Below, one piece after another: positions 1 to 59,735 of a DNA stretch of 64,000 nucleotides. The notes below the pieces were generated by a model. That model did not search any database and was not told the DNA's origin. It saw only the letters and a program-made list of their open reading frames with translations. Numbering within the stretch: position 1 is the stretch's first letter; every line of letters starts with the position of its first letter. Position numbers and translations under genes: made by a program. The DNA is from Planctomycetota bacterium (GTDB taxonomy: Bacteria > Planctomycetota > SZUA-567 > H5-PLA8). The DNA is taken from positions 15,390-79,389 of the forward strand of contig JACQFI010000044.1 in the NCBI GenBank assembly GCA_016200135.1, read 5' to 3'.

Positions 1-364
1 GCCGAATTGCCGATGTCCAGACCCCAAACCACCCTGTGTGCCATGGCGCTGTGGCTCCTTATACGGGAAGAGGAGAATTCCTCCGCTCGCTAGAAACGTC
101 GTACCGGAAGGGCGATCTGTTGAACAAAGTGGACCATTCATCCCGCATTGCGTGGTCGCAATGCCCAACGGGAGTTCCACCTCGTCCCCTACCGGAAAAG
201 CTGCTTTAACTGATTGGCGTAACTAGAGTTTAGCTACGCGCTGCGAGAGTCAAGACAAAAACGAATACCGACTTCAAATCCTCCTAATTCAGCAATGGCT
301 CTGATTTAATATCAACAGCACCTAATTGGCGGATATCTCCACCCCGCTTCTTCCTCCCAAAGCA

Positions 365-396
365 AACCGGGGTGGCCTGTTAGGGCCACCCCGGTT
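365..396 (-). terminator. Perfect GC-rich hairpin (aaccggggtggcc-tgtta-ggccaccccggtt) immediately downstream of mglB; putative terminator with a weak U-tract
   Basis: 13-bp perfect inverted repeat with 5-nt loop read directly from the sequence, 29 bp downstream of the mglB stop (425). The trailing T-run is weak. Confidence 0.45.
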
Positions 397-424: not shown

Positions 425-940
425 TTACTTCTTGTCGGAACCGAAGAAGTCGTCCAGGGCGGATTCGGCGGCCTGCTGGTACTCCTGGCTGACGCCGGAG
501 GCCTTATCCTTATTCCTCTCCATGCTGGCCAGCATGGTGTCGGTAAGCTTCTGGGTCAGTTCCTCGGCGTAGAGCCGGACCATGCCAAGAGTGGTTCGGT
601 CGTCAAAGATGACCACAACCAGGGCGCGCTCGGCCACCAGTCCGATATGGATGTTCTCGTTCTTACCCTGGTGAAAGAGGACGGAGAATTCGGTCTCGCC
701 CAGCAGCTTCGCGACTTCGCGCGTCGAAGCGAACGAACCCGCAACCAGGGCGGCGATGGAGTCGGTATTGAACGACTTGGTGAAGCCCTTCTTGGTGACC
801 AAGTGGCCTTCCTTGTCGATCAGGAGCGCGCACTTGGCCTGGGAGCGTTCGAGGAAGTGCTCGAGGATCTTGTTAATCTCTTCGATATCTTCTTCATAGA
901 AGACCAGACGCGCCTTGCGCATCTTTTCGCTGAATTCCAT
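425..940 (-). CDS. mglB: MglB-like Roadblock/LC7 GTPase-activating protein
   Basis: Translation (LLIDKEGHLVTKKG...VVVIFDDRTTLGMVRLYAEEL...DDFFGSDKK) aligns along its length with Myxococcus MglB as I remember it (Roadblock/LC7 fold, acidic C-terminus). I chose the internal ATG at 940 because a GAGGAGG RBS lies 7 nt upstream; the ORF extends to 976. Confidence 0.8.
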   Translation of the reverse strand: MEFSEKMRKARLVFYEEDIEEINKILEHFLERSQAKCALLIDKEGHLVTKKGFTKSFNTDSIAALVAGSFASTREVAKLLGETEFSVLFHQGKNENIHIGLVAERALVVVIFDDRTTLGMVRLYAEELTQKLTDTMLASMERNKDKASGVSQEYQQAAESALDDFFGSDKK

Positions 941-1086
941 CTCGTTTCCTCCTCGATCCCCACAACGCTCCGGCACATAACCGCCGCTGCCGGAGCCTGC
1001 ACAGGTCGATGATTAGGCTCTCCAGTAATACTCCCGTTTGCAGACTACGTCCAGCCTTTTGTGGACGGGCCGCATGCACACCTCTG

Positions 1087-2241
1087 CTACAGCTTGATGA
1101 ATCCTCCAAAATACGCCGCGGCGGCTGCCGCCACCAAAAGCAGCACGACGATGCCCACAATCAACCCTGCCTTGCTTCCGCCTTCAGACACGGGCTCAGG
1201 CGCGCTTTCTTCAGGGACCGCGGACGCTTCCTCCGCAGGCGCACTCACCTGCTGCTGCGCCGCCGCTTCGGCTTGGCGGCGCCGGGCGATCTCAAGCGAG
1301 ACCGGGTTCATCTTCATCGTGGATTGCACCGGCGACTCGGCAGGCGCCGATTCGGTCATCGGGGGCGGCGGCGGCGCGGGTGCGGGCGCTGGGGCCGGCG
1401 CGGGTGCAGACGCTCTAGGCGGTGGTGGCGGCGCAGGAGCCGGGGCGACGGCCACCGGAGCGGGCACAGGGGCCGGCGGCGGTGGCGCGGCGGGTCTGGG
1501 CGGCGGCGGCGGCGGAGGCGGCGGTGCGGCACGAGGCGGTGGAGGAGGCGGTGGCGCAGGCACGGAGGCAGGCGGCGGCGGCGGAGCCGCGGGCCTCGCC
1601 ATGGCCGATGAGCGCGCCGTAGCGCCGCCACGTTTGGCGCCGTCTTCGCTGTAGCCCTGTTCGCGATTGAGCTTGCGGATGACCTGCTGCGAAATGGCCT
1701 TTAATGTCTGGAAGACGCCGTCGCCGTTCACGGCCACCGCTTCGACCGTGGGCCAGTTGTTGCGGTTCATCTTGGCGTTGAGTTCTTCGGCGGGCACCGC
1801 ATTGGGAAGGTCGCGTTTGTTCCACTGCAGCACCAGCGGGATATCGTTGATGTCCAGCCCGTTCTCTTTCAGGTTCTTGGCCAGGTTCTCGAGAGACTCG
1901 ATGTTCTCGTTGATCATGTCCGGGTTCGAGTCCGCGACGAAAACGATGCCGTCGCAGCCCTGGAGCACCAGCTTGCGGGTCGCGTCGTAGTAGACCTGCC
2001 CGGGCACGGTGTAGAGCTGGAACTTGGTCCGCATGCCGGCCACGGTGCCGAGGTCCAGCGGCAGAAAGTCGAAGTAGAGGGTGCGGTCGGTCTCGGTGGC
2101 GATGGAGACGAGTTCGCCGGTCGAGTTCGCGGGCGCCTTGGCGTGAACCACCTGGAGGTTCGTCGTCTTGCCGCAGCGGCCGGGACCATAAAAGACGATC
2201 TTGCAGTTTACTTCTCGCGTCGCGAAATTGATCTGGACCAT
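1087..2241 (-). CDS. mglA: MglA-like Ras-superfamily small GTPase with ~110-aa polyproline/Ala-Pro linker and a C-terminal transmembrane tail anchor
   Basis: The N-terminal ~195 aa nearly match MglA motifs: P-loop GPGRCGKTT, switch I TETDRTLYFDFLP (intrinsic Arg finger and Thr), switch II TVPGQVYYDA, and NKRD. They are followed by PPPPPPPP/APAPAP low complexity, an acidic segment and a terminal hydrophobic helix GLIVGIVVLLLVAAAAAAYFGGFIKL. Confidence 0.85.
   Translation of the reverse strand: MVQINFATREVNCKIVFYGPGRCGKTTNLQVVHAKAPANSTGELVSIATETDRTLYFDFLPLDLGTVAGMRTKFQLYTVPGQVYYDATRKLVLQGCDGIVFVADSNPDMINENIESLENLAKNLKENGLDINDIPLVLQWNKRDLPNAVPAEELNAKMNRNNWPTVEAVAVNGDGVFQTLKAISQQVIRKLNREQGYSEDGAKRGGATARSSAMARPAAPPPPPASVPAPPPPPPPRAAPPPPPPPPPRPAAPPPPAPVPAPVAVAPAPAPPPPPRASAPAPAPAPAPAPPPPPMTESAPAESPVQSTMKMNPVSLEIARRRQAEAAAQQQVSAPAEEASAVPEESAPEPVSEGGSKAGLIVGIVVLLLVAAAAAAYFGGFIKL
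1380..1625. repeat. Extremely GC-rich (GGC/GCC/CCG)n low-complexity DNA encoding the polyproline linker of mglA
   Basis: Runs of ggcggcggc / gccggg seen directly. The opposite strand gives poly-Gly/Ala/Arg ORFs (1061..1654, 1009..1611), which are antisense artefacts. Confidence 0.6.
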
Positions 2242-2460: not shown

Positions 2461-2721
2461 ATGGCCGGCGAACGCCTGGAAGAGCGTCTGAAACTGATGA
2501 TCGTCGAGCGCCTGATGCTTAAATTCAAGCCTGAGGAGATCGCCGACGAGGACGACCTGATCAAGAAGTGGGGGCTGGAATCGGTGCAGCTCATGGAGAT
2601 CGTGATCGGCCTCGAGGAAGTCTTCGGCATTCAGCTCGGCGACGACGAGTTCTCCGTCAAGAAGTTCCGCACAGTCAAGAATATCGCCGAGGTCGTGCGC
2701 GGGAAGAAGCCGGATGCGTGA
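2461..2721 (+). CDS. Acyl carrier protein (phosphopantetheine-binding)
   Basis: 86 aa, acidic, with the conserved Ser in the (G)LESVQLMEIV context typical of ACP helix II. A GGAGGGA RBS lies 7 nt upstream of ATG 2461. The ORF track starts at 2350, but the upstream part has no ACP-like sequence. Confidence 0.8.
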   Translation: MAGERLEERLKLMIVERLMLKFKPEEIADEDDLIKKWGLESVQLMEIVIGLEEVFGIQLGDDEFSVKKFRTVKNIAEVVRGKKPDA

Positions 2722-2736
2722 AGACTAACGCGTCAT

Positions 2737-2813
2737 ACGTAAAACGTAATTACAGCCGCCGTAACCCCCTGCTTCTCTATCTTCGGACCTTACGTTTTAC
2801 GTTTTACGTTTTA
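2737..2813. repeat. Inverted repeat tacgtaaaacgtaa ... (ttacgttt)x3 with ~40-nt spacer between the ACP and hydrolase genes
   Basis: Seen directly: the left arm at 2737-2750 is the reverse complement of the triplicated acgtttt units at 2790-2813. Confidence 0.4.
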
Positions 2814-2823
2814 GAATCCACGC

Positions 2824-3666
2824 ATGCCCGAGACCCCCGGCTACTTTCCCGCTTCCGACGGCACTCCTCTTTACGGCGTCTACCACGCGCCGGATGCGCC
2901 GGCCAAAATTCCCGTGCTCGTCGCGCCATCACTCTTTGAAGAACGCAAGTCCGCCTATGCGGCGCTCACGAGTCTCGCCCGCGCGCTGGCTACGGACGGC
3001 CACCCGGTGCTGCGCTTCGATTACCGCGGCAGCGGCGAGTCCGGCGGCGACTCTGGGGTTCGGCGCTGGCCGGACTTGGCGGCCGATCTCGCGGCTGCAC
3101 GCCAGGCACTGGCGAAGCAGTGCGGCGCCGATGCCGTCGCATTAGTGGGCCTGCGCTTAGGCGCGACGCTCTGCCTTTTGGAAGGCGCGAAGCTCAACGC
3201 GAAAGCCGTGGTGGCGCTCGCGCCCGTGATCAAAGGCGCGGCCCAGGCGCGCCTGTGGCGCTTGCGCTCCAAAATTCGCGCTGAGATGACGCAAGGCGAA
3301 GGGCAGCCATCATCCGGCGAATCTCAAGTGGCGTCGCGTCCAGCGTCCGCTCGGCAGAGCTCGCCGGAAGCCCTCGCCCCTCGTCCCGATGTTCTGGACT
3401 TCGAGGGCCTCGCCGTGGCGCCGGGTTTTTTTGACGAGGTCGCCGCCCTCGATCTCTCCACCGCGCCTGCAATCGCGGTTCCCTCGCTGCTCGTGCAGAT
3501 CTCCCACCGTACCGATGCCGCGCCGGAGAGCGAGCAACTCGCGAAGTCCCTGGGCGCGCAGTGCAAGCTCACGGCGCTGCGGCTGGAGCCCTTCTGGGAC
3601 CGCGTGGACGACGTGAACACGAAGGACCTGGAGCAGGCGGTAATAGGGTTCCTCAAAGCATTTTAG
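2824..3666 (+). CDS. Alpha/beta-hydrolase-fold protein (S33/exosortase-associated-hydrolase-like), non-canonical nucleophile elbow
   Basis: PVLRFDYRGSGESGGD matches the HG/oxyanion region of small alpha/beta hydrolases. The presumed nucleophile elbow reads VGLRLGAT (Arg where Ser is expected). There is no signal peptide. Confidence 0.65.
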   Translation: MPETPGYFPASDGTPLYGVYHAPDAPAKIPVLVAPSLFEERKSAYAALTSLARALATDGHPVLRFDYRGSGESGGDSGVRRWPDLAADLAAARQALAKQCGADAVALVGLRLGATLCLLEGAKLNAKAVVALAPVIKGAAQARLWRLRSKIRAEMTQGEGQPSSGESQVASRPASARQSSPEALAPRPDVLDFEGLAVAPGFFDEVAALDLSTAPAIAVPSLLVQISHRTDAAPESEQLAKSLGAQCKLTALRLEPFWDRVDDVNTKDLEQAVIGFLKAF

Positions 3667-25843: not shown

Positions 25844-28834
25844 ATGCGCGTGCATTTCGGCGGGCGCGGAAGCTCCCAAATCGTGGGCAAACGTATGGTT
25901 CGTCGTATTCATAGTTGGGCCGTTCAGATCCGGACCTTCACGCTCGCCGCGTGCCTGCTCCTGGGCGGTGCCTTCGCCTTATCGAGAGGCGCCGCCGGCG
26001 AGGACCAGACCAAGAGCGACTCTGCGGACGCCGAAAAAAAGAAGAAGGAAGAAAAATCGAAGGAGCCGGAATTCAAGTTCGACGCCTGGTGCGCCTTCCG
26101 CGACTTCTCCAGCGCGCAACTGCCCCCGCCCGAACCCAACGCCGATCCCATGCGCCGGGACCACTCCCGCCCCGGTGCCAGCCAATGGCGCGGCTTCGCT
26201 CGGCACGGGAAGTGGGTCAACCTGGTCGTGGAACTTCAGAACACAGCCGAAAAAGACCCGTACACCGGCGCGATCCGCGTGCGGCTCGATCCTACGCAGG
26301 AGTCCACCGAGACAGGCGAGAAGCCCTACACCACGCGCTACCGCCAGGACTACGATCTGCCGCCTCAGACCACCAAGCGCTTCACGTTCAGCGTGCTTGC
26401 CCCGGAGTACACCTTCAACCAGATCGAGATCAACATCTCGGCCAATGGGCAGACCAAGACCCGCGTCCTGGTGCTCTCGGACCTCGACCAGAACGTGAAG
26501 AAGCCCGGCGAACTCGTCGTCGCGGTCTCCGACGAAGCCGGCGCATTCAAGTTCCTCACCTCGCGTTCAAAGAGCAACCCCGACGGCCTGGACGACGAAG
26601 GCATCAACCGCCAGGTCGCGGTGGTGCGCCCGGTCGATCTCCCCAGCCGCTGGTACGACCTGACGATGGCCAATCTGATCGTGATCGACAACCCGCCCCG
26701 CGAGGGCTTCACCGACGAACAGCTCGAGGCGCTCGAGGCCTACTGCCAGGCGGGCGGCCATCTCTTGATCGGCGCGGGCAAGGATCCCTCGCGCCTGGGT
26801 CCCAAAGAAGGCCAGTACCGCAGCCTCGCCGACCTTGCGGGCGTGCGCGTCAACGGCAGCGCGGCCGTCGCGCAACTCGACCTCTATCCGCCGGCCTTTA
26901 AAGGCACTGGCGAAGACTGGAAGCTCCCGATCGTGGACGTCTCGGTCAAGCCGGACCTCGAACACGTCTACGTCGTCAAGAACCAGGGCAAGGAAGGGTA
27001 CATCGAGGAAGTCGAGCGCGTCGTGGGCCTGGGTTCGGTGACGTTCCTTACCTTCTCGCTCAGCGACGAACAGCTTCAGGCCTGGGCCGGCCGGCAGCAG
27101 TTGCCGCTCTACCTGCTGGAAAACGCCGTGCGCCCGCCGCTCTTCGGGCTGGAAGACCCGCACCTCGAGAATAAGCAGGGCACCAATCAGTGGGGCTGGC
27201 CCACGGAAGATGCGGCCACGGGCCCCGACCGCGGCACGCTCTTCAAGCTGCGTAAGGACGTGGACGAGTCTTACACCAAAGATACCCCCGTCGAGACGCA
27301 GAAGAAGCCCTTCGTGGCCTCGTTCCTGCTGCTCTTCCTGCTCTTCGCGGTGCCGGGGAATTACATGATCTTCGGCTGGTTCAAGCGCCGCGAGATCGCG
27401 TGGCTCGCGGTGCCGCTCTGGGCCATGGGCTTCAGCGTTGCGGCGTACTTTATTGGCTATTACGGCCGCGTCGGCAAGCTGACCGTCAACGAGCTGTCCG
27501 TCGTCGAGGCCGGGCCAGGGCAGCAGTACGGCATCGGCCGCACATTTGTAGGCATCTATTCGCCCCGCCGCGGCGAGTACAAACTCGAGTTTAAGAGCGA
27601 TCAGGAGTGGGCTTCGCGCGTGCAGGCGGGGCCCGGGCACTTGATCCGCGACCTGCGCACGCGCGGCATCACCGACGTGCTGCCGGAACTCGACATCGTC
27701 ACCGAGGGCGGTGGAATGTCCGTCGAAAACCTCCTCGTCCAGGCCCGCGCCACGCGCCGCCTAGAGCTCAACCATCGCGTCGATCTCGGCGACGGCATCC
27801 GCGCGCGCATGAAGAGCAAGAACGCCTCGGGCGCTTCCGTCTACGAGATTTCCGTCCAGAACCAGACCTCGAACCAGATCATCGGCGCGGCGCTGATCCA
27901 TCGCGGACCGCAGGGCCTGCGCGGTTTCGAGATCGGCAACCTCGATCCCAAGATGGCCGAGGCCAAGGTGCTCGAAGCGCCCATCACGGACGGCGCGCCG
28001 TGGAAAGACGTCAGCGAAGCCTTCTTCAAGGATCCGCCGAAGTTCCGCTACGCCCGCGGCTCCGACGCCACCGACCGCGGCCGCGCGGTGCTGGAGTTCC
28101 TGCGCGCGCGAATCGAACTCTACGGCGAGTCCGTGCTCGTGGGCTGGATCGACGGCGGCATTCTGCCGGTGAAGGTCGACGGCGAAGATCCCGGCAGCTC
28201 GCGCGGCATGACGCTCCTGATCGTGCCGTTCCCGGAAGAACTCGGCCGCGGCAGCGCGCGGATCGCCCGCGGGCGCCGCATCCAGGTCTCGCCGGATTAC
28301 GACGTCATCCCCGCCAACAACAACTGGAAGGCGCTCAAGGCCGACGGCGGCTCAGCGCGTCTTTCCGTGCGCGGCCAGGACGAAGGCACGCTCGTCTATC
28401 GCACCACGCTGCCCCAGGACGAACTCAAGACGCTCGCCAACAAAACGCTCACGGTGGAGTTCAAGCTCCGCGCGCTCGGCGACCAGGAACTCGGCCCGCA
28501 GCGCGGCGGGCACAACGGCTTCCAGGGCCACCTCGTGGTCGAGGTCCAGGAGCGCGTGGGCAACCAGACGCGCTGGACGCAGATTCCTTCCGTCCAAGTT
28601 AAGAACATCCCGATCCCGTTCAATCTGAGTCCCGGGATGGCGTCCAAACCCATCGCCTTCGAGTGCCCCTTCACCCCTGCGCTGGCATTGAACCGGAATG
28701 TGACCATTAAGGTGACTACTCGGAAACTGGTCACGACGGGCATAGAGGAGGACAACGCCACCGAGTGGACGCTGGCCGTGGAAGCCTTCAAGCTCGACAT
28801 CGTGGACAAGACGAAACCGAAAGAAAAGCCGTAG
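25844..28834 (+). CDS. Large (996 aa) membrane protein, possible ABC-transporter auxiliary component (GldG/ABC_transp_aux-like)
   Basis: N-terminal hydrophobic signal/anchor, Lys/Glu-rich stretch, a central TM hairpin (FVASFLLLFLLFAVPGNYMIFGWF...WLAVPLWAMGFSVAAYFIGYY) and large extracytoplasmic domains on either side. It sits immediately upstream of the ABC ATPase and ABC-2 permease. The family assignment is inference. Confidence 0.65.
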   Translation: MRVHFGGRGSSQIVGKRMVRRIHSWAVQIRTFTLAACLLLGGAFALSRGAAGEDQTKSDSADAEKKKKEEKSKEPEFKFDAWCAFRDFSSAQLPPPEPNADPMRRDHSRPGASQWRGFARHGKWVNLVVELQNTAEKDPYTGAIRVRLDPTQESTETGEKPYTTRYRQDYDLPPQTTKRFTFSVLAPEYTFNQIEINISANGQTKTRVLVLSDLDQNVKKPGELVVAVSDEAGAFKFLTSRSKSNPDGLDDEGINRQVAVVRPVDLPSRWYDLTMANLIVIDNPPREGFTDEQLEALEAYCQAGGHLLIGAGKDPSRLGPKEGQYRSLADLAGVRVNGSAAVAQLDLYPPAFKGTGEDWKLPIVDVSVKPDLEHVYVVKNQGKEGYIEEVERVVGLGSVTFLTFSLSDEQLQAWAGRQQLPLYLLENAVRPPLFGLEDPHLENKQGTNQWGWPTEDAATGPDRGTLFKLRKDVDESYTKDTPVETQKKPFVASFLLLFLLFAVPGNYMIFGWFKRREIAWLAVPLWAMGFSVAAYFIGYYGRVGKLTVNELSVVEAGPGQQYGIGRTFVGIYSPRRGEYKLEFKSDQEWASRVQAGPGHLIRDLRTRGITDVLPELDIVTEGGGMSVENLLVQARATRRLELNHRVDLGDGIRARMKSKNASGASVYEISVQNQTSNQIIGAALIHRGPQGLRGFEIGNLDPKMAEAKVLEAPITDGAPWKDVSEAFFKDPPKFRYARGSDATDRGRAVLEFLRARIELYGESVLVGWIDGGILPVKVDGEDPGSSRGMTLLIVPFPEELGRGSARIARGRRIQVSPDYDVIPANNNWKALKADGGSARLSVRGQDEGTLVYRTTLPQDELKTLANKTLTVEFKLRALGDQELGPQRGGHNGFQGHLVVEVQERVGNQTRWTQIPSVQVKNIPIPFNLSPGMASKPIAFECPFTPALALNRNVTIKVTTRKLVTTGIEEDNATEWTLAVEAFKLDIVDKTKPKEKP

Positions 28835-41227: not shown

Positions 41228-41338
41228 CCTTCTTCGAGGTATACAAAAGTAGTTTGAATTGTGCATTTCTGCGGTAGGTTCAACCGTCAGTGCCCATAAA
41301 CGTTGCGTTATCAGGGTGTCCTTTTAGGGGGGGACCCC

Positions 41339-44300
41339 ATGAGCAGTATGATCGTCATATGCGCAGGGTGCGGCAAGAAGTACAAGGGCGCGCCCAGCCA
41401 GAAGAAGTTCAAGTGCGGCCAATGCGCCAATCTCTACACGTTTCCGGTCGGCGCGCAGTCGCCCGGACCCGGCAAGCTTCTCTGTTCCTGCTGTTGGATG
41501 CAGCACGCCAATACGCCGGCCCTCAAAGAGTGCTCTCAATGCAAGCAAAAGATCTCCTCCAAGTTTGTGGGCAAGGCCCTCTGGATTGCGTCGCTTCCGG
41601 CCAATGAAGTCGAAGGCGACGAGAGCGGCGGCGGTACGGCGCCCAAGTCTCCGGCGAAGCCCAGTTCCGTCTTCCTCAAGCAATCGCCCTTGGCGGCCGG
41701 CGGCGCGAAGCTCTCCAACCCCGGCTTGAAGGTAGCGCCGCCCGCGGGCCCCAAACCCTCAACCCCGGGCGTTAAGGCCGCGCCTGCAGCGCCCGCAACC
41801 GCTTCGCGTGTGGGACCTGCCACGGGGCCTGCCCCTGCAGCCGTCACGCCGTCTTCGGCAGCGCTCAAGAGCGCTCCGGCTCCGGCAGGCGCCTCGCGCG
41901 TCGGCGCGGCGGCTCCCGCGCCCCGGCCGTCTTCCGCGGGGTTCAGGGCCACGCCCACGCCTGCGAGTGGCACTCGAGTTGTTCCAAGCGCGCCCAAGGC
42001 CAACACGGGACTGGACATCTTTCCCAAGCCCGCGCCGGCTCCGGTCAGGATCTCCAGCGCGGGCCTGAACGCGGTGCCGCCCAAGGCGCCTGCGCAGGCT
42101 CAAAATGTAGATGCCGATATATCCTCGATCTCTTCCTTCTTCGACGACGCCGACAAGGGTCCCATGAAGCCCTTGGCCGAGCCTAAGAAGGAGGAATCCT
42201 CGGCGGCCATCGATCCCACTCTCGCCGCCGCGGTGCTCAAAGAAGAACTCAAGGCGACCAAGTCGTCGGCCTCCAAGTCGGCCGTGCCTGCGGTAAAGAT
42301 GCCGGCGTCGGCCAAGTCCTTCGCCGGCGGCCTGCTCGGCCAGCTCTCCGCGCCTTCCACCACTTCCAATCGCGCCCCTGTGCCCAGCACCGATCTCGAA
42401 ACGCGCCTGATGCACGAGATCAAGCATGCCGAGCAGCTCTGGCGCGACCTTGAAGCCGCGCGCAAGGCTCTAAAGGAAAAAGGCGGCCCGTCCGCGGGCA
42501 TCGCCGAGTTCCAGGAGCGCCTCCTCGCCAAGGATCGCGAGCTCTCGCAGGCCCGCGCGGCGCTCGACGAGAACCGCAAGAAGCTCGCCACGCTCCCCAA
42601 GCTGGAAGCGAAGCTTGCCGCCGAGACCGAGGCGCGCGAGGTCGCCCACCAGGCGCTCGAAGAATCCGAGAAGGCGATGCAGCAGTTCGAGACGCGCATC
42701 GCCGAGCTCGAAGCGCAGCTCAAGAGCGCCCCTGCCGCGCCGGCAGCCGATCCCGCAGAACTCGCGCAGGCGCGCGCGGACCTCGAGGAGAAGGCGGCCC
42801 AAGCCGCCGATCTCGAAGGGCAGCTCGCCGCCGACCGCCAGGCGCTCGACGTGGCCATGCAGGAGAAAGAGACCGCCGAGGACGCGCGCTTCAAGCTTGA
42901 AGTCCGCCTTGCGGAGACCGAGAAGAAGCTCGCCGAAATCCAGAATCAGGCCGCCGCGTCCAGCCAAGCCGGAGAGGCCGCGAAGCAGCTCGAGGACGAA
43001 CTGAGCCGCGCGAGCAAGGCCGCCGAGGAAAACGCCGCCGCCGCCGAACAGGCCCGCCAGGAACAGGAAGCCGCCTTCAAGGAACTCGAGGCCGCGCAGA
43101 AGGCCCTCGAAGACGCGCGCGCGGCCGCGGCCTTGGCCGCGGAAGAGTTCGAACGCAAGCTCGACGACGAGCGCCGCGCCAAAGCGGGCGTCGAGATCGC
43201 GCTCAAGGCCGCCGAAGAGGGACGCGCCGGCGAAGAGACGGGCCGCAAAGGCCTCGAAGCCCGCGTCACCGAGCTCGAACAGCAGCTCGCGTCCGCCCAA
43301 GAACACCTGGAGTCCGTGCGGCGCGCCGCGGAGTCTTCCCAGGCCGCCACCGTGGAGCTCGAGAAAGCCCAGAAGGACATCGAGGCCTTCCAGTCCACGG
43401 TCTCCGCGCTTACGACGCAGTTCGAGGAGGAAAAGCGGGCCCGCGAGGCCTCCGAGAAACTGCAAGCCGCGGCCGAAAACGCGCGCGAAGCGGCCGAGTC
43501 GCGCCTGAAGGACCAGCAGACCCGGCTCACCGAGACCCAGAGCCAGCTTGCGGGCATGCAGCGCTTCGAGGAAGAGCTTGCGCAGGTCCGTCTCGAGCGC
43601 GACAAGCTCCAGGCCAAGGCCGATGAGCTCGACCAGCGCCTCGCCGAGGAACTCAAGTCCGGCGAGACCTTCCGCCTGGAATGGAACAAGCAGTCGCAGC
43701 TCCGCAAGACGCAGGACGCCAAGCTCGAAGAACTCAAGGACCAGTTCGACGCCGAGAAGCAGGCCAAGGACGCGGCCGTAGCTCAGCGCTACGAGTTCGA
43801 GACCAAGATCAAGCAGCTCGAAGGCGACCTCAACGAGCTTCAGAAAACCTACGCCGAAGACCGCAAAACGCTCGAAGAGCAGCAGCACCAGCTCGACACT
43901 GCCTCCGCCTCAAAGGACGAACTGGAACGCAAGCTCGCTGAGGCCGAAAAGGCCCTGGCCGAGGCCCGCGCGGCGCAGGAGGCCACCGGCAAGGCCCAGG
44001 CCGGCGCCGACCAGGCCCGCCAGGAGTTCGAGCAGAAGGCCGCCGAACTTCAGCAGTCGCTAGGCGCCGCGCAAAAGGAATGCGACGACGCCAAAGGCGA
44101 GATCGAGAAGCTCACGAAATTCCGCGAGGGCCTGGAAGCGCAAGTCAAGGAACTGCGCGCCGCCGCTCAGGCAGCCCCGGCAGGCGCGGCAGGCTCGCCT
44201 CCGGCCGCCACGGCCGGCGGCTCCGTCGAAGTTGAGGAACTCCGCAAGCAGATCGACATCCAGCAGGCCGAGGCCATCCAGGCCAAGGGGCTGCTCGCCG

Positions 44301-45091
44301 CCAAGGAAGAAGAACTCGATCTCATCAAGAAGATGCTCATCGAGTCGCTCTCGCCGCTGGTGCCCGCGTTCCGGCAGGCCCTTGAAACCGTGCGCAGCGA
44401 GGCCGAGCAGCTCGTCACGATCGTGACGCAGGTCCGCCAGACGCTCGACGCCTCCGCCGGCGATCCGGAGAAACTTCGGGAAGTCGCGCAGGAAGTCGTG
44501 CAGATCGAATCCAACGCGGTGGGACTTCAGGGAAAGATCGCGCTCACCAACCGGCAGGTGATCGGCCAGCTCGCCAACGTGATCGGCGTGCCCACGGAGG
44601 AAGGCGAGGCCGAGACGGCCCGCGCTTCCGGAGCCGCACCGGCCGTATCCACCGAAGCGCCTCCGCCCGAGCCCGCAGCGCAGGCCGAAGTCGTCGAGGC
44701 CGGCGAAGTGGAGGCCGAAGAATCCCCCGCTCCGGTGGAAGCGCCCGCCGAAATCCCCGCGGAGCAGGTCGAGGCCGAAGCGGCGCCCGTGGAAGAGCCC
44801 GATCCGCCCAACACGCCCGCGGAAGTCGAAGCCATCCAAGCCGAACTGGCCCAGGACGACGACGATGAAGAGGCGGATGAGGCCCCGAATTCCGCGGCTT
44901 CCAAGCCGATCTCTTCCAAAAAGCCGTCGGCCTTCACTTCCGCCCATCGCCTGAAGATGCAGGCCAAGGCCAAGCCCGCGGCTTCAAACGATGGCGCAGA
45001 AGAAGGCGAGGCCCCCGCCGGCGACGAGTCCGCCGACGCCCAGAAAAAAGGCGGCTTCTTCAACCGCTTCTTCGGCGGGAAGAAGAAATAG
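41339..45091 (+). CDS. Giant (1,251 aa) protein: N-terminal tandem zinc ribbons + Pro/Ala-rich repeat linker + ~900-aa coiled coil + acidic segment + basic C-terminal tail
   Basis: ATG with a G7 RBS-like run upstream. Zinc ribbons CAGCGKKY...CGQC and CSCCWMQH...CSQC. The linker carries repeated S(S/A)AGxxAxP...ASRVG motifs. Then comes a long heptad Ala/Glu/Lys/Gln/Leu-rich region, an EAEA/PAP acidic region, and the end ...KKGGFFNRFFGGKKK. The antisense ORFs are artefacts. Confidence 0.8.
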   Translation: MSSMIVICAGCGKKYKGAPSQKKFKCGQCANLYTFPVGAQSPGPGKLLCSCCWMQHANTPALKECSQCKQKISSKFVGKALWIASLPANEVEGDESGGGTAPKSPAKPSSVFLKQSPLAAGGAKLSNPGLKVAPPAGPKPSTPGVKAAPAAPATASRVGPATGPAPAAVTPSSAALKSAPAPAGASRVGAAAPAPRPSSAGFRATPTPASGTRVVPSAPKANTGLDIFPKPAPAPVRISSAGLNAVPPKAPAQAQNVDADISSISSFFDDADKGPMKPLAEPKKEESSAAIDPTLAAAVLKEELKATKSSASKSAVPAVKMPASAKSFAGGLLGQLSAPSTTSNRAPVPSTDLETRLMHEIKHAEQLWRDLEAARKALKEKGGPSAGIAEFQERLLAKDRELSQARAALDENRKKLATLPKLEAKLAAETEAREVAHQALEESEKAMQQFETRIAELEAQLKSAPAAPAADPAELAQARADLEEKAAQAADLEGQLAADRQALDVAMQEKETAEDARFKLEVRLAETEKKLAEIQNQAAASSQAGEAAKQLEDELSRASKAAEENAAAAEQARQEQEAAFKELEAAQKALEDARAAAALAAEEFERKLDDERRAKAGVEIALKAAEEGRAGEETGRKGLEARVTELEQQLASAQEHLESVRRAAESSQAATVELEKAQKDIEAFQSTVSALTTQFEEEKRAREASEKLQAAAENAREAAESRLKDQQTRLTETQSQLAGMQRFEEELAQVRLERDKLQAKADELDQRLAEELKSGETFRLEWNKQSQLRKTQDAKLEELKDQFDAEKQAKDAAVAQRYEFETKIKQLEGDLNELQKTYAEDRKTLEEQQHQLDTASASKDELERKLAEAEKALAEARAAQEATGKAQAGADQARQEFEQKAAELQQSLGAAQKECDDAKGEIEKLTKFREGLEAQVKELRAAAQAAPAGAAGSPPAATAGGSVEVEELRKQIDIQQAEAIQAKGLLAAKEEELDLIKKMLIESLSPLVPAFRQALETVRSEAEQLVTIVTQVRQTLDASAGDPEKLREVAQEVVQIESNAVGLQGKIALTNRQVIGQLANVIGVPTEEGEAETARASGAAPAVSTEAPPPEPAAQAEVVEAGEVEAEESPAPVEAPAEIPAEQVEAEAAPVEEPDPPNTPAEVEAIQAELAQDDDDEEADEAPNSAASKPISSKKPSAFTSAHRLKMQAKAKPAASNDGAEEGEAPAGDESADAQKKGGFFNRFFGGKKK

Positions 45092-56435: not shown

Positions 56436-59400
56436 GTGAGCGCGTCCGACCAGACGCTGTCCGACCTTCCGAGCACCCACGTGGTCCGCGGCTGTCTGGC
56501 GCGCGTGCGCCGGCGCTGGCTGGCGACGGATCTGGCCGCCGGAGCGCTGCGGCTGCTGGGCATTACGCTCGCGCTGCTGCTCGTCCTGGGCATCGTCGAG
56601 ATGCTCGCGCGACCTGGAGCAGCGTGGCGCATTGGGCTGATGCTGGTGGCCCTCGGGTTCTGGCTCGCGAGCGTCTGGCGCTGGCTCGTGCGGCCTGCGC
56701 GCGAACGCATCACCGACGCCCGCGCGGCGGTAAAAGTCGAATCCGCCTTTCCGCAACTTGAGAACGCGCTGATTAACGCGGTGCAACTGGCCGTCGCCGT
56801 GCGCTTGCCTGCTCCGGCGCTGGCCGCGGCGGCGATCGACCAGGCCGCGCTGCGCGTGCAGGCCCTGCCTGTCGAACGCGCGGTCTCCGTCACGCCCATC
56901 AAGCGCGCCGCAATGGTCCTAGGCGCGGCGGCGCTCTGCTTTGCGCTGATCGCAGGCGTCAAAGGCCCGGCCTTCGTCGCGGCGCTCCAGCAACTGCTCC
57001 GGCCCACGGCGTTCGTGCCTGCGGTCGGCGACCACCCCATCGTCTCGGTCAAGCCCGGCGACTGCTCGGTGCTCGCCGGCGGCGAATTGAACGTTGAAGT
57101 CGAAGTCGCGCCGTACGAAGGCGAGGCGCCCGAAGCCACGCTCTACGTCCGCGAAGAGGGCGCGCCCCGCGAGCAGGCCGTGAAGATGGAGATGGCCGAG
57201 CGCGTGCGCTTCCTGGCGCCGTTGCGTGAGATCCGTAAGGCGCTGGTCTATCGCGTCGAGATCGGCACGAGCCAGTCGGCGCTCTATAAGGTTTCCATCG
57301 TCGAGCGGCCCCGCGTGGACCGCATCGACCTGAGCATCACGCCGCCCGCGTACACGGGCCTCAAGTCTGAACGCTACCAGGACGTGCCCGGCGATATCCG
57401 CGCGCCGCAAGGCAGCAAGGTGGAACTCACGGCGCATTCGGACCGCGTGGTCACCGAGGGCGCGGTGGTGATCGAAGAGACCGACGCGGTTCCGCTGACG
57501 CTCGGCGGCGAAGGCCAATCTTTAACGGGCGCGTTCGAGATCAAGCGCAGCGGTTATTACACTATTCGCCTGAAGAACGCCGGCGGCCACACCAACGCCG
57601 AGGGCGCGCCGCACAAGATCGAGTGCATCCCCGACCGCCCGCCGGCGGTCAGGATTGCCGCGCCGGTGGAGAAGGAACTCACGCTTGGCGCAGGGGCGAG
57701 CGTGCCCATCGCGGTCGAAGCGACCGACGACTACGGGCTCGCGGAGGTCAGCGTGCGCTTCAAGCGCAACCGCGAGGGCGTCGAACAGGTGCTCAAGGTC
57801 TGGAAAGAGTTTCCGCCGCCGGGCCGCGCGGCCCGCGTGCAGGCGGTGCTGGCGCTCACGCCGGAGGCCGGCTTCGAGGCCGGCGACACGGTGTACTACC
57901 TCGCGGAAGCCAAGGACCGCGCGCAGTCCTCGCGCACCGTCGCGCAGGTAATCAAGGTCATCGATCCGAAGAAGGCCAAGGAAGAGAAGATCGAGGCGCT
58001 CGGCGATGTGCTCAAGCGCCTCGAGATGGTCCTGCAGTGGCAGAACGCCGCGCTGGCCGCCTCCGACCGCCACCGCGACCTGGCCTTAAAGGAAAAGAAG
58101 GCGGTGCCCGCGCCCGAAGCCGCGCGCGTGCTCGACGCCCAGGCGAAGATCCGCGCCGAGAGCGCAGAGGTCGCCAAGTCCATCACGCCCAGCGACAAGA
58201 CGCTCAGTTGGGTGCGCGAGGCCCTCGCGGGCCTGCTCGCCGATCCCATGCCCAAGGCGCTCGTGGCCGCCGAACGCGTCCTCAAGCTCGCCGCGCAGCC
58301 GGCGGACCTCGCCGGGCCGCTGAACGAACTCGGCGCCGAACAGCGCCGCATCGTCGCGGGACTCAAGTCGATCCTGGCCGTGCTCCCGAAGGTTGCCGAG
58401 GCCGTAAAGGAGGAAGTGGACCGCACCCAGGGCTACGACCTGCCGAACGACGTCAAGAAGGAACTCGAAGACCTGAAGGACAAGCTGAAGGAGTTCGCCG
58501 ACCAGCAGAAGAAGACGGTAAAGGCCTCGGAGGACCTCGCCAAGAAACCCGCCGAGGACCTCTCCGAAGAAGAGAAGAAGGAAATGAAGGCGCTCGAGGC
58601 CAACCAGGACGACTGGGCTAAGTTCATGCGCGAGGCATACAGCGACTTCAGCAAAATTCCGAAGCAGGACTTCACCGACCCGCGCCTGCTGCAGGAACTC
58701 TTACAGACCTACGAAGAAGTCGAGATGGCCAAGGACGCGCTGAGCAAGAAGGCCGCGGAGATCGCCGTCGCCGTCGAGGAGAGCGGCGTGGAGGACGCCA
58801 AGTCGCTCACGACCCATATCGAGAAGTGGCTGCCGGACAAGCCCGACCGCGAGAAGTGGAGCATGGAGGAGCCGATCGGCGACAACCAGACGCCCATGGC
58901 CGAGCTGCCCAAGGAGCTCGAAGACATCATGGGCGACCTGATGGAGAAGGAAGAGGACCTGATGGAGGAGGCCAACGACCTCACCAGCAAGTGGGCCGAC
59001 TCCATCGACAAGGGCGCGGGCTGGGACGCCGCCGACGGACCGATCTCGAACATGTCCGCGCAGGGCGTCACCGGCAACCAGTTGCCGAACACGTCCGAGA
59101 TCGGCGGGCGCTCGGGCGAAGGCCGCCAGGGCAAGGCCTCGGGCGAGATGGTCGGCGACACCGCGACGGGCAAGGGCGGGCGCAAGACGCCCACGCGCCT
59201 GAGCCCCGATCCGTTCCAGGCCGGGCAGATCAACGATACCTCGAAGGACCCCGCCGGCGGCGCGACGGGCGGCGGCAAGTCGGGCGCGCCCGGCGGCGAG
59301 GGCCTGGAAGGCCCGGTCCCGCCGAACTTGAAGCTCAGCATGGAGCGGCTCTCCGGCCGCCAGGCCGAACTGCGCAACCAGGCCGAGCGCCTCAACCTGA

Positions 59401-59735
59401 ACCTGAAGATGATGAACTACCCCAGCGCCGACCTGGAGAAGGCCATCAAAGAGATGAAGAAGTTCGAGACCGACACGAAGGACGGCCGCTATGAGAACAT
59501 CGCCCGCCAGCGCCCGGTGCTCCTGAAGAACCTGAAAGCCGCGCAGGGCTACACCGAAGGCGTCTCCCGCATCGCCCGCGACGGCTCGCCGAATCTGCCT
59601 CGCGGCGTCCAGGACGAGATCCTCGACGCCCTCTCCGGCGAGAACGCGCCGAAGGGCTATGAGGATTTGCTCAAGGGTTATTACGACGGGCTGATCAAGG
59701 GCGACGCGAAGCCGTCGCCCACGCCAAAGAAATAA
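56436..59735 (+). CDS. Large (1,099 aa) membrane protein with N-terminal TM helices, extracytoplasmic beta-rich region, coiled-coil segments and Gly-rich C-terminal region
   Basis: GTG start. Hydrophobic helices at ~35-60, 65-85 and 160-180. Long helical Lys/Glu-rich segments. The C-terminal segment is Gly/Ala-rich low complexity. I recognise no family with confidence. Confidence 0.65.
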   Translation: MSASDQTLSDLPSTHVVRGCLARVRRRWLATDLAAGALRLLGITLALLLVLGIVEMLARPGAAWRIGLMLVALGFWLASVWRWLVRPARERITDARAAVKVESAFPQLENALINAVQLAVAVRLPAPALAAAAIDQAALRVQALPVERAVSVTPIKRAAMVLGAAALCFALIAGVKGPAFVAALQQLLRPTAFVPAVGDHPIVSVKPGDCSVLAGGELNVEVEVAPYEGEAPEATLYVREEGAPREQAVKMEMAERVRFLAPLREIRKALVYRVEIGTSQSALYKVSIVERPRVDRIDLSITPPAYTGLKSERYQDVPGDIRAPQGSKVELTAHSDRVVTEGAVVIEETDAVPLTLGGEGQSLTGAFEIKRSGYYTIRLKNAGGHTNAEGAPHKIECIPDRPPAVRIAAPVEKELTLGAGASVPIAVEATDDYGLAEVSVRFKRNREGVEQVLKVWKEFPPPGRAARVQAVLALTPEAGFEAGDTVYYLAEAKDRAQSSRTVAQVIKVIDPKKAKEEKIEALGDVLKRLEMVLQWQNAALAASDRHRDLALKEKKAVPAPEAARVLDAQAKIRAESAEVAKSITPSDKTLSWVREALAGLLADPMPKALVAAERVLKLAAQPADLAGPLNELGAEQRRIVAGLKSILAVLPKVAEAVKEEVDRTQGYDLPNDVKKELEDLKDKLKEFADQQKKTVKASEDLAKKPAEDLSEEEKKEMKALEANQDDWAKFMREAYSDFSKIPKQDFTDPRLLQELLQTYEEVEMAKDALSKKAAEIAVAVEESGVEDAKSLTTHIEKWLPDKPDREKWSMEEPIGDNQTPMAELPKELEDIMGDLMEKEEDLMEEANDLTSKWADSIDKGAGWDAADGPISNMSAQGVTGNQLPNTSEIGGRSGEGRQGKASGEMVGDTATGKGGRKTPTRLSPDPFQAGQINDTSKDPAGGATGGGKSGAPGGEGLEGPVPPNLKLSMERLSGRQAELRNQAERLNLNLKMMNYPSADLEKAIKEMKKFETDTKDGRYENIARQRPVLLKNLKAAQGYTEGVSRIARDGSPNLPRGVQDEILDALSGENAPKGYEDLLKGYYDGLIKGDAKPSPTPKK

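Follow-up and report, generated by a model that had tools for sequence, protein, structure and literature searches.

A predicted C-terminally membrane-anchored MglA GTPase encoded upstream of MglB on a planctomycete chromosome

The mglA-mglB locus and the anatomy of the MglA tail

We analyzed a stretch of 64,000 nucleotides from a Planctomycetota bacterium (contig JACQFI010000044.1; hereafter the 64-kb window, whose numbering is used throughout), near one end of which two minus-strand genes code for a small GTPase of the MglA family and its MglB partner. The first gene, mglA-TM (1087..2241, stop codon included), encodes a 384-amino-acid (aa) protein, hereafter the query, which the list of open reading frames (ORFs), matches to MglA structures in the PDB and homologous sequences identify as a putatively membrane-anchored Group-1 MglA GTPase. 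The second gene, mglB (425..940), encodes a 171-aa Roadblock/LC7 GTPase-activating protein (GAP) recognized by Pfam and NCBIfam, by a match to PDB chain 6izw_B and by its Shine-Dalgarno sequence.

The G domain occupies residues 1-196 (1654..2241, minus strand) and is delimited by alignment to Myxococcus xanthus MglA: residues 3-196 of the two proteins align without gaps (5ymx, E 6e-75; 6h17 also matches, with E about 1e-74). The alignment to Thermus thermophilus MglA (3t12, E 3.5e-69) is likewise gap-free, while chains of the Arf family match the query G domain at E 1e-10 to 1e-8 or weaker in the same PDB search. The P-loop GPGRCGKT is found at residues 19-26 and NKRD at residues 141-144. The TETDRT motif holds the intrinsic Arg finger R53 next to the G2 threonine T54, and the G3 motif TVPGQ (residues 78-82) supplies the catalytic glutamine Q82, both being hallmarks of Group 1; the catalytic-motif columns are invariant in both homologue alignments (A1 and A2). 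The original prediction that the N-terminal ~195 aa constitute an MglA with the full catalytic set is thus confirmed, and its motifs mark the G domain as a Group-1 MglA that is catalytically complete. The sole Group 1 property that the query lacks is size, since the survey that defined Group 1 admitted single-domain proteins of 150-240 aa.

The mglB gene starts with an ATG at position 940, with a GGAGGA Shine-Dalgarno sequence 7 nt upstream. Its product scores 41 bits against Pfam Robl_LC7 (cutoff 23) and matches M. xanthus MglB (6izw_B) over residues 11-167, i.e., nearly the whole length, with E 7e-29. The score against NCBIfam NF052242, the Thermus-type MglB equivalog, is 104 bits, below the cutoff of 200, so the protein is a homologue outside this narrow equivalog. 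The mglA stop codon and the mglB start codon are separated by 146 nt on the same strand, and an MglB homologue is therefore present within four genes, as in Group 1. The gene had been described as lying immediately downstream of mglA; it is downstream and close, but the 146-nt gap means that the two genes do not abut. The ORF layout bears out that the order is mglA then mglB, opposite to that in Myxococcus.

Directly after residue 196 comes a short Gly/Ser/Ala segment, which leads into a Pro/Ala-rich low-complexity linker at residues 216-308 (1318..1596, minus strand). The linker is defined by its composition, by a repeat detected with Tandem Repeats Finder (TRF), by coil in an AlphaFold2 (AF2) model and by insertions and deletions (indels) relative to P0001, the nearest relative. 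It consists of 54% Pro and 25% Ala and contains runs of 5, 7, 9, 4, 5 and 5 prolines; the polyproline runs are coded by a period-3 CGG repeat of ~38 copies (1474-1584, TRF). Translation through nine consecutive prolines should depend on EF-P. A low-complexity stretch of ~110 residues had been proposed here; the Pro/Ala-rich linker is present, but its length is ~93 residues.

Residues 309-357 comprise a basic helix (NPVSLEIARRRQ; core NPVSLEIARRRQAEAAA, at ~312-330) followed by an acidic Ala/Glu/Ser/Pro stretch. The acidic stretch had been noted before, while the basic helix preceding it had been overlooked. The conserved part of the latter, NPVSLEIARRRQAEAAAQQ, spans residues 312-330 (1252..1308, minus strand) and is supported both by a sequence motif and by an AF2 helix at residues 313-330. 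The motif, NP(L/V)(S/A)xEI(R/A)(R/K)R(K/Q), stands 25-45 residues ahead of the membrane helix in many homologues; a strict pattern (NPxSxEIxRRK) retrieves 31 of 121 sequences, and similar basic motifs precede the amphipathic anchor of the sister clade described below.

The protein ends with a predicted transmembrane helix, GLIVGIVVLLLVAAAAAAYFGG, at residues 359-380 (1102..1167, minus strand), after which only FIKL remains. On the Kyte-Doolittle scale, hydropathy over 19 residues peaks with a score of 2.78 at residues 360-378, the maximum within residues 1-340 being 0.72. The AF2 model, built on a shallow alignment, contains the G domain, coil at 196-312 and helices at 313-330 and 358-378, the last with a block pLDDT (predicted local distance difference test) of 78-87. 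The terminal hydrophobic helix of the original prediction is thus recovered by both approaches. As expected of a tail anchor, there is a single hydrophobic helix at the extreme C-terminus and neither a signal peptide nor another transmembrane segment. Taken together, these features make it probable that the pair is a bona fide bicistronic mglA-mglB module of the planctomycete chromosome, in which MglA would be a membrane-resident switch and not a soluble one.

Recurrence of the tail and classes of C-terminal anchor

A word-indexed search of 5.8 billion proteins retrieved 7103 matches to the query. The tails of the best 120 were examined, and 113 carry a hydrophobic helix, which stands at the very C-terminus in 93 proteins and is followed by a further tail in 20. 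Ninety new proteins were added by a second, profile-based search, and a hydrophobic tail helix is present in 84 of them. The homologues stem from independent JGI, ENA, NCBI and Logan assemblies, hundreds in all, so the expected recurrence in related taxa of MglA homologues with a C-terminal transmembrane helix was indeed observed. We also searched 1.84 billion cluster representatives (50% identity) exhaustively with HMMER, using the G domain alone; this yielded 2299 matches at E <= 1e-30, and the best 150 representatives are all 244-717 aa long. On the evidence of these sequences, the architecture defines a whole planctomycete clade and is not a one-off.

An exact copy of the query protein is not on record in public assemblies. 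P0001, which comes from locus L081, is 81% identical to the query across 100% of its length. Its G domain and MglB are 99.5% and 99.4% identical to those of the query, yet the protein is 367 aa long instead of 384 aa. The tail is 17 aa shorter, and the indels fall within the proline runs coded by the CGG repeat, which suggests that the length of this region varies by slippage. Since the indels are confined to the proline runs and the ends are near-identical, the linker appears to be a true hypervariable region between two conserved ends.

We sorted 291 homologous sequences by their C-termini. The transmembrane class comprises 187 sequences, with a terminal helix in 153 and more than 25 residues after the helix in 34. 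A further 52 lack a transmembrane helix and end in a short basic-hydrophobic helix, 50 have another C-terminus or are fragments, and only 2 are 240 aa or shorter (P0117, at least, being a partial record). The linkers of the transmembrane class (n = 187) are 82-411 aa long (median 160) with 4-42% Pro (median 22%). A rigid polyproline stalk, which had been proposed, is therefore not what is conserved; a long disordered spacer is, and the rigid stalk, going by these compositions, is specific to the lineage of the query. The membrane helix itself is conserved among the homologues as a feature and not as a sequence. The 12 residues ahead of it carry a net positive charge in 83% of the 187 tails, which fits an N-in topology. 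In 27 homologues (P0005-P0044 and others), a polybasic stretch with a cysteine (KK..GC, e.g., KKKKGC) directly precedes the helix and resembles the polybasic/Cys region of K-Ras.

Depending on the set of matches, about a fifth to a half of the transmembrane class has 26 to ~140 residues beyond the helix. By their predicted topology, members with long post-helix tails are bitopic and not strictly tail-anchored. In P0030, P0075, P0079-P0083, P0087, P0089 and others, as well as at locus L002, 50-137 Pro/Ala/Thr-rich residues follow the helix and would be periplasmic.

The basic-hydrophobic ends read KKKGFFKRLFGIK, KKRSFFKKLFGIK or KPGFLKRLFGNK, the first being the end of the Zixibacteria and Ignavibacteria homologues. 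The protein of locus L016 ends in GFLKRLFG, identical to part of the membrane-targeting sequence of Escherichia coli MinD, KGFLKRLFGG (PMC5471200). Because they are near-identical to the MinD sequence, we consider these ends to be putative amphipathic anchors of the MinD type. The hydrophobic moment of the amphipathic C-termini discriminates weakly (median 0.55; the controls have a median of 0.35 and a 95th percentile of 0.62). A separate group of long MglAs (P0179, P0201, P0205, P0219, P0236, P0257 and the L052 protein) has neither a transmembrane nor an amphipathic helix and ends in a strand-like VPIxIxV...KLxIxLxLxI sequence, which may be another undescribed C-terminal module.

To place these classes on genomes, we relied on a scan of GTDB species genomes in which 80 loci were examined, the best match listed being 71% identical to the query. 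Among the matches listed, the Planctomycetota loci that are not cut by a contig end have the long form, mostly of the transmembrane type; an exception to the latter is the Brocadiia locus L022, whose C-terminus is basic-hydrophobic. Zixibacteria and Ignavibacteria loci among these matches have the amphipathic form, and those of Acidobacteriota, Gemmatimonadota and Myxococcota nearly all have the classical form of 192-209 aa, with the exception of L052 (Thermoanaerobaculia, 380 aa). Gene order follows the same division: among the matches listed, nearly all long loci with an mglB match have mglB downstream on the same strand and nearly all short ones have it upstream, with 2 exceptions among more than 45. 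A neighbour-joining (NJ) tree of G domains resolves into three separate clades, one each for the transmembrane, amphipathic and short classes; the transmembrane clade also contains a few amphipathic-type ends. The strongest evidence that C-terminal membrane attachment is what selection maintains comes from these two different anchor devices sharing one position on unrelated linkers.

Neighbouring genes and conserved gene modules

About 30 nt past the mglB stop codon there is a terminator-like hairpin (354..396, minus strand) with 13 GC-rich base pairs and a U-tract, identified by RNA folding; its energy is -43.5 kcal/mol (z = -3.5), and 0 of 200 shuffled sequences fold as well. Beyond it, the first 14 codons of a pilM/ftsA-like gene (MAHRVVWGLDIGNS; 1..44, minus strand, read from the reverse complement of window positions 1-60) run off the edge of the window. 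Because the hairpin divides mglB from this gene, mglA and mglB look like a separate bicistronic unit.

MAHRVVWGLDIGNS equals the first 14 residues of a 635-aa PilM_2 protein encoded 3' of mglB at L081, and L088 is arranged alike. At these closest relatives (L081, 6921-11732; L088, 5275-9979), mglB is followed by a PilM_2 protein of 621-635 aa (E 7e-29) and then by two bitopic proteins without a Pfam match, which together resemble a pilMNO-like trio directly 3' of mglB. On the other side of mglA, an acyl-carrier-protein gene and an alpha/beta-hydrolase gene (window 2461-3666, plus strand) lie upstream and are divergent from it; the acyl-carrier-protein gene is found upstream at L081 and L088 too, and the hydrolase gene at L081.

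Slightly more distant relatives have a different gene after mglB. At L082, L083, L087, L089 and L090, mglB is directly followed by a gene for a PatA_N(PATAN)-TPR-beta-propeller protein of 1103-1115 aa. A five-gene module is seen at L084 (3224-9557), L086 (3276-9685) and ~20 more loci; it codes, in this order, for a PATAN(DUF4388)-TPR-beta-propeller protein (~1000 aa), a TPR protein (~370 aa), a small Roadblock protein, the long MglA and MglB. All or most of this order is found in the deeper part of the transmembrane clade and in the amphipathic clade, the small Roadblock protein being ~116-121 aa long, with 7yh1 as its nearest PDB match (E 8e-6). The amphipathic-helix clade keeps the module order, with a shorter PATAN protein.

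The rest of the 64-kb window is ordinary chromosome, with genes for ValRS, an S12-S7-EF-G operon, L27 and metabolic genes. Among its ~40 Pfam-annotated genes no rom, frz, gliding, pilus or flagellar genes were found, and so the neighbourhood check suggested with the original prediction, for romR/romX, frz and gliding genes, gave a negative answer within the window. Rfam and tRNA scans of the window returned nothing, and a scan for sigma-70 promoters returned nothing near the mglA-mglB locus. Three large proteins of the window are of no assigned family: a 1262-aa protein (41303-45091, plus strand) with only a weak coiled-coil 'Filament' match, a 1099-aa protein (56436-59735, plus strand) with no Pfam match and a 996-aa protein (25844-28834, plus strand) with a sub-threshold DUF4350 match.

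Possible function, alternatives and relation to known GTPases

From the layout of the protein and its operons, one can envisage the following mechanism. The C-terminal helix would insert N-in/C-out as a tail anchor, and the G domain would remain cytoplasmic, tethered by a flexible leash tens of nanometres long. GTP hydrolysis would be stimulated by MglB, as in Myxococcus and Thermus. MglA-GTP would draw effectors to the membrane's inner face, and the PATAN-TPR-beta-propeller and TPR proteins of most clade operons are the best candidates for this role. Two-dimensional diffusion, combined with localised GAP or effector activity, would then set the localisation in place of cytosolic exchange.

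PilB1 and PilC are binding partners of the PATAN domain in Synechocystis (bioRxiv 10.1101/2021.06.11.447907), and co-occurrence of PATAN and TPR proteins with SgmX is described for M. xanthus (PMC11580455). Given that in Synechocystis the type IV pilus motor is bound by PATAN domains, and that mglB is followed by a pilM-like cluster in the lineage of the query, the likeliest output, which we propose by analogy and tentatively, would be spatial control of type IV pili or of a related envelope machine. On a broader and somewhat more speculative reading, the query could belong to a large overlooked Ras/Rab-like branch of MglA in which a hypervariable linker connects a G domain to a C-terminal anchor, with its own gene order and with PATAN-TPR-beta-propeller, TPR and second small Roadblock partners. 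As part of that same reading, the branch would span Planctomycetota, which have a transmembrane helix, as well as Zixibacteria, Ignavibacteria and Fibrobacter-like lineages, where the helix is amphipathic and of the MinD type. Its members might act as two-dimensional, membrane-confined switches that pattern envelope machines.

Several observations weigh against these proposals. The hairpin between mglB and the pilM-like gene makes their linkage weak, and this linkage is limited to the closest relatives of the query. Homologues of the PATAN, TPR-371 and small Roadblock proteins were searched for in the 64-kb window, and none was found. Membrane insertion is read from hydropathy and the AF2 model only, and the flanks of the query helix are nearly neutral, so that the inside is not clearly positive. 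The NJ tree carries no support values. Finally, no named cultured species occurs among the ~240 best matches of both protein searches, including the profile search, which was aimed at named cultured planctomycetes and gave only entries of uncultured 'Planctomycetota bacterium'.

Among the alternatives, the one that survives best, though we consider it unlikely, is that the anchored module is real but, instead of controlling polarity, motility or pili, serves a planctomycete-specific function at the membrane, e.g., FtsZ-less division or budding, invagination of membranes, or SR-beta/Arf-like targeting of proteins. [quoted passage not shown] Database names also point this way. JGI calls many members 'signal recognition particle receptor subunit beta', Pfam puts the domain under Arf, and 'ADP-ribosylation factor-like' and 'GTPase domain-containing' are further labels of the homologues. 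SR-beta and Arf are likewise small Arf-like GTPases held to the membrane by a hydrophobic helix, but they are anchored at the N-terminus. The query, in contrast, has a C-terminal anchor, matches MglA (E 1e-75) much better than Arf (E 1e-10 or weaker) and is paired with MglB; membership in the Arf/SR-beta group was therefore rejected.

It is very improbable that the tail is a neutral low-complexity expansion with an incidentally hydrophobic end, the protein being a soluble MglA with a floppy appendage. The sequence, length and composition of the linker are indeed unconserved, and indels occur even between near-identical relatives. Nevertheless, the helix is kept at or near the C-terminus over a clade whose linkers share no sequence, positive charge precedes it in the large majority of tails, and in the sister clade this place is taken by an independent amphipathic membrane-targeting helix.

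We regard as negligible the probability that an assembly or sequencing frameshift joined an ordinary mglA of 195 aa in silico to GC-rich downstream sequence. The CGG repeat that codes the tail is prone to slippage, and high-GC DNA yields long spurious ORFs on both strands. However, hundreds of independent assemblies show the combination of G domain, linker and C-terminal helix, P0001 aligns over the entire query, and the conserved helix and NPxSxEIxRRK motif are both in frame. The remaining two frames contain 5 stops each over the tail, and third-position GC is high in the annotated mglA frame. The frameshift test proposed at the outset, once run, thus lent no support to an artefact, and this candidate was rejected.

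No more credible is a PEP-CTERM, GlyGly-CTERM or sortase-type signal cleaved after export: PEP-CTERM proteins are numerous in planctomycetes and the query has 'PEP' ~10 residues ahead of the helix, but this 'PEP' is missing from P0001 and P0002, no basic cluster follows the helix, no NCBIfam sorting domain matches, and the protein lacks an N-terminal signal peptide and begins with a cytoplasmic GTPase, for which reasons the candidate was rejected.

As can be seen from the above, the query shares with the MglA/MglB systems of M. xanthus and T. thermophilus a gap-free G domain, the Arg finger by the G2 threonine, TVPGQ, NKRD and a full-length Roadblock-type MglB. It differs from these MglAs in having 384 instead of 195 aa, in the added linker, basic helix and transmembrane helix, in the order mglA-mglB instead of mglB-mglA and in the lack of rom or frz genes nearby. 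The survey that defined Group 1 (Wuichet & Sogaard-Andersen 2014) left out sequences above 240 aa, namely, 39 of 488 MglA-clade proteins, 14 of them MglB-coupled, and Planctomycetes are not listed among its Group-1 phyla (PMC4316618). Because this reference survey dropped proteins above 240 aa, the anchored class stands outside the classification used in the field (PMC4316618). We found no description of an MglA anchored by a transmembrane or amphipathic helix in open-access papers and bioRxiv, and to that extent the view that such a protein was undescribed still stands. Occasional PATAN neighbours of short MglAs are on record (Makarova et al. 2006, as cited in PMC11580455; noted in PMC4316618). 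The long MglAs of the clade also adjoin PatA_N (DUF4388) proteins, often together with TPR and small Roadblock proteins, but unlike in the earlier PATAN-Mgl operons, the PATAN domain is fused to TPR repeats and a beta-propeller in a protein of ~1000-1100 aa; none is present at the query locus.

The closest parallels to the tail come from other families. Long MglAs of the sister clade end in KKKGFFKRLFGIK or GFLKRLFG, almost the KGFLKRLFGG of E. coli MinD, whose type of membrane-targeting sequence FtsA also has, and these ends show what the C-terminal extension is presumably for. Unlike MinD, the query would be held by an integral transmembrane helix and not by a reversible amphipathic one; MinD, moreover, is a ParA-type ATPase whose membrane binding is nucleotide-dependent, while attachment of the query is predicted from sequence. 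Eukaryotic Ras, Rho and Rab proteins have a similar layout of conserved G domain, fast-evolving flexible linker and C-terminal membrane anchor, but the anchor of the query is a peptide helix and not a prenyl or acyl group, and there is no CAAX box. Since the G domain belongs to the MglA family, the likeness to Ras and Rab is convergent. Miro is a tail-anchored GTPase with a layout like that of the query. According to a 2024 study of Asgard archaea, the C-terminal anchoring extension of Rab arose in proto-eukaryotes (PMC10933270).

Current models of MglA polarity depend on a small soluble protein that exchanges between the poles via the cytosol, and a clade with the same catalytic core fixed to the membrane tests which parts of these models are general. 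The anchored clade includes the most similar relatives of the query in very large databases, and the layout occurs in Planctomycetota, a phylum that stands out for its elaborate membranes and its unusual mode of cell division. If the proposed reading is true, the mechanism would differ from the cytosolic pole-to-pole MglA oscillator of Myxococcus. The combination of G domain, hypervariable linker and C-terminal anchor, which is commonly presented as an innovation of eukaryotes connected with endomembranes (PMC10933270), would have evolved repeatedly in bacteria, and the planctomycete MglA would provide a convergent bacterial precedent for the C-terminal membrane anchoring of small GTPases.

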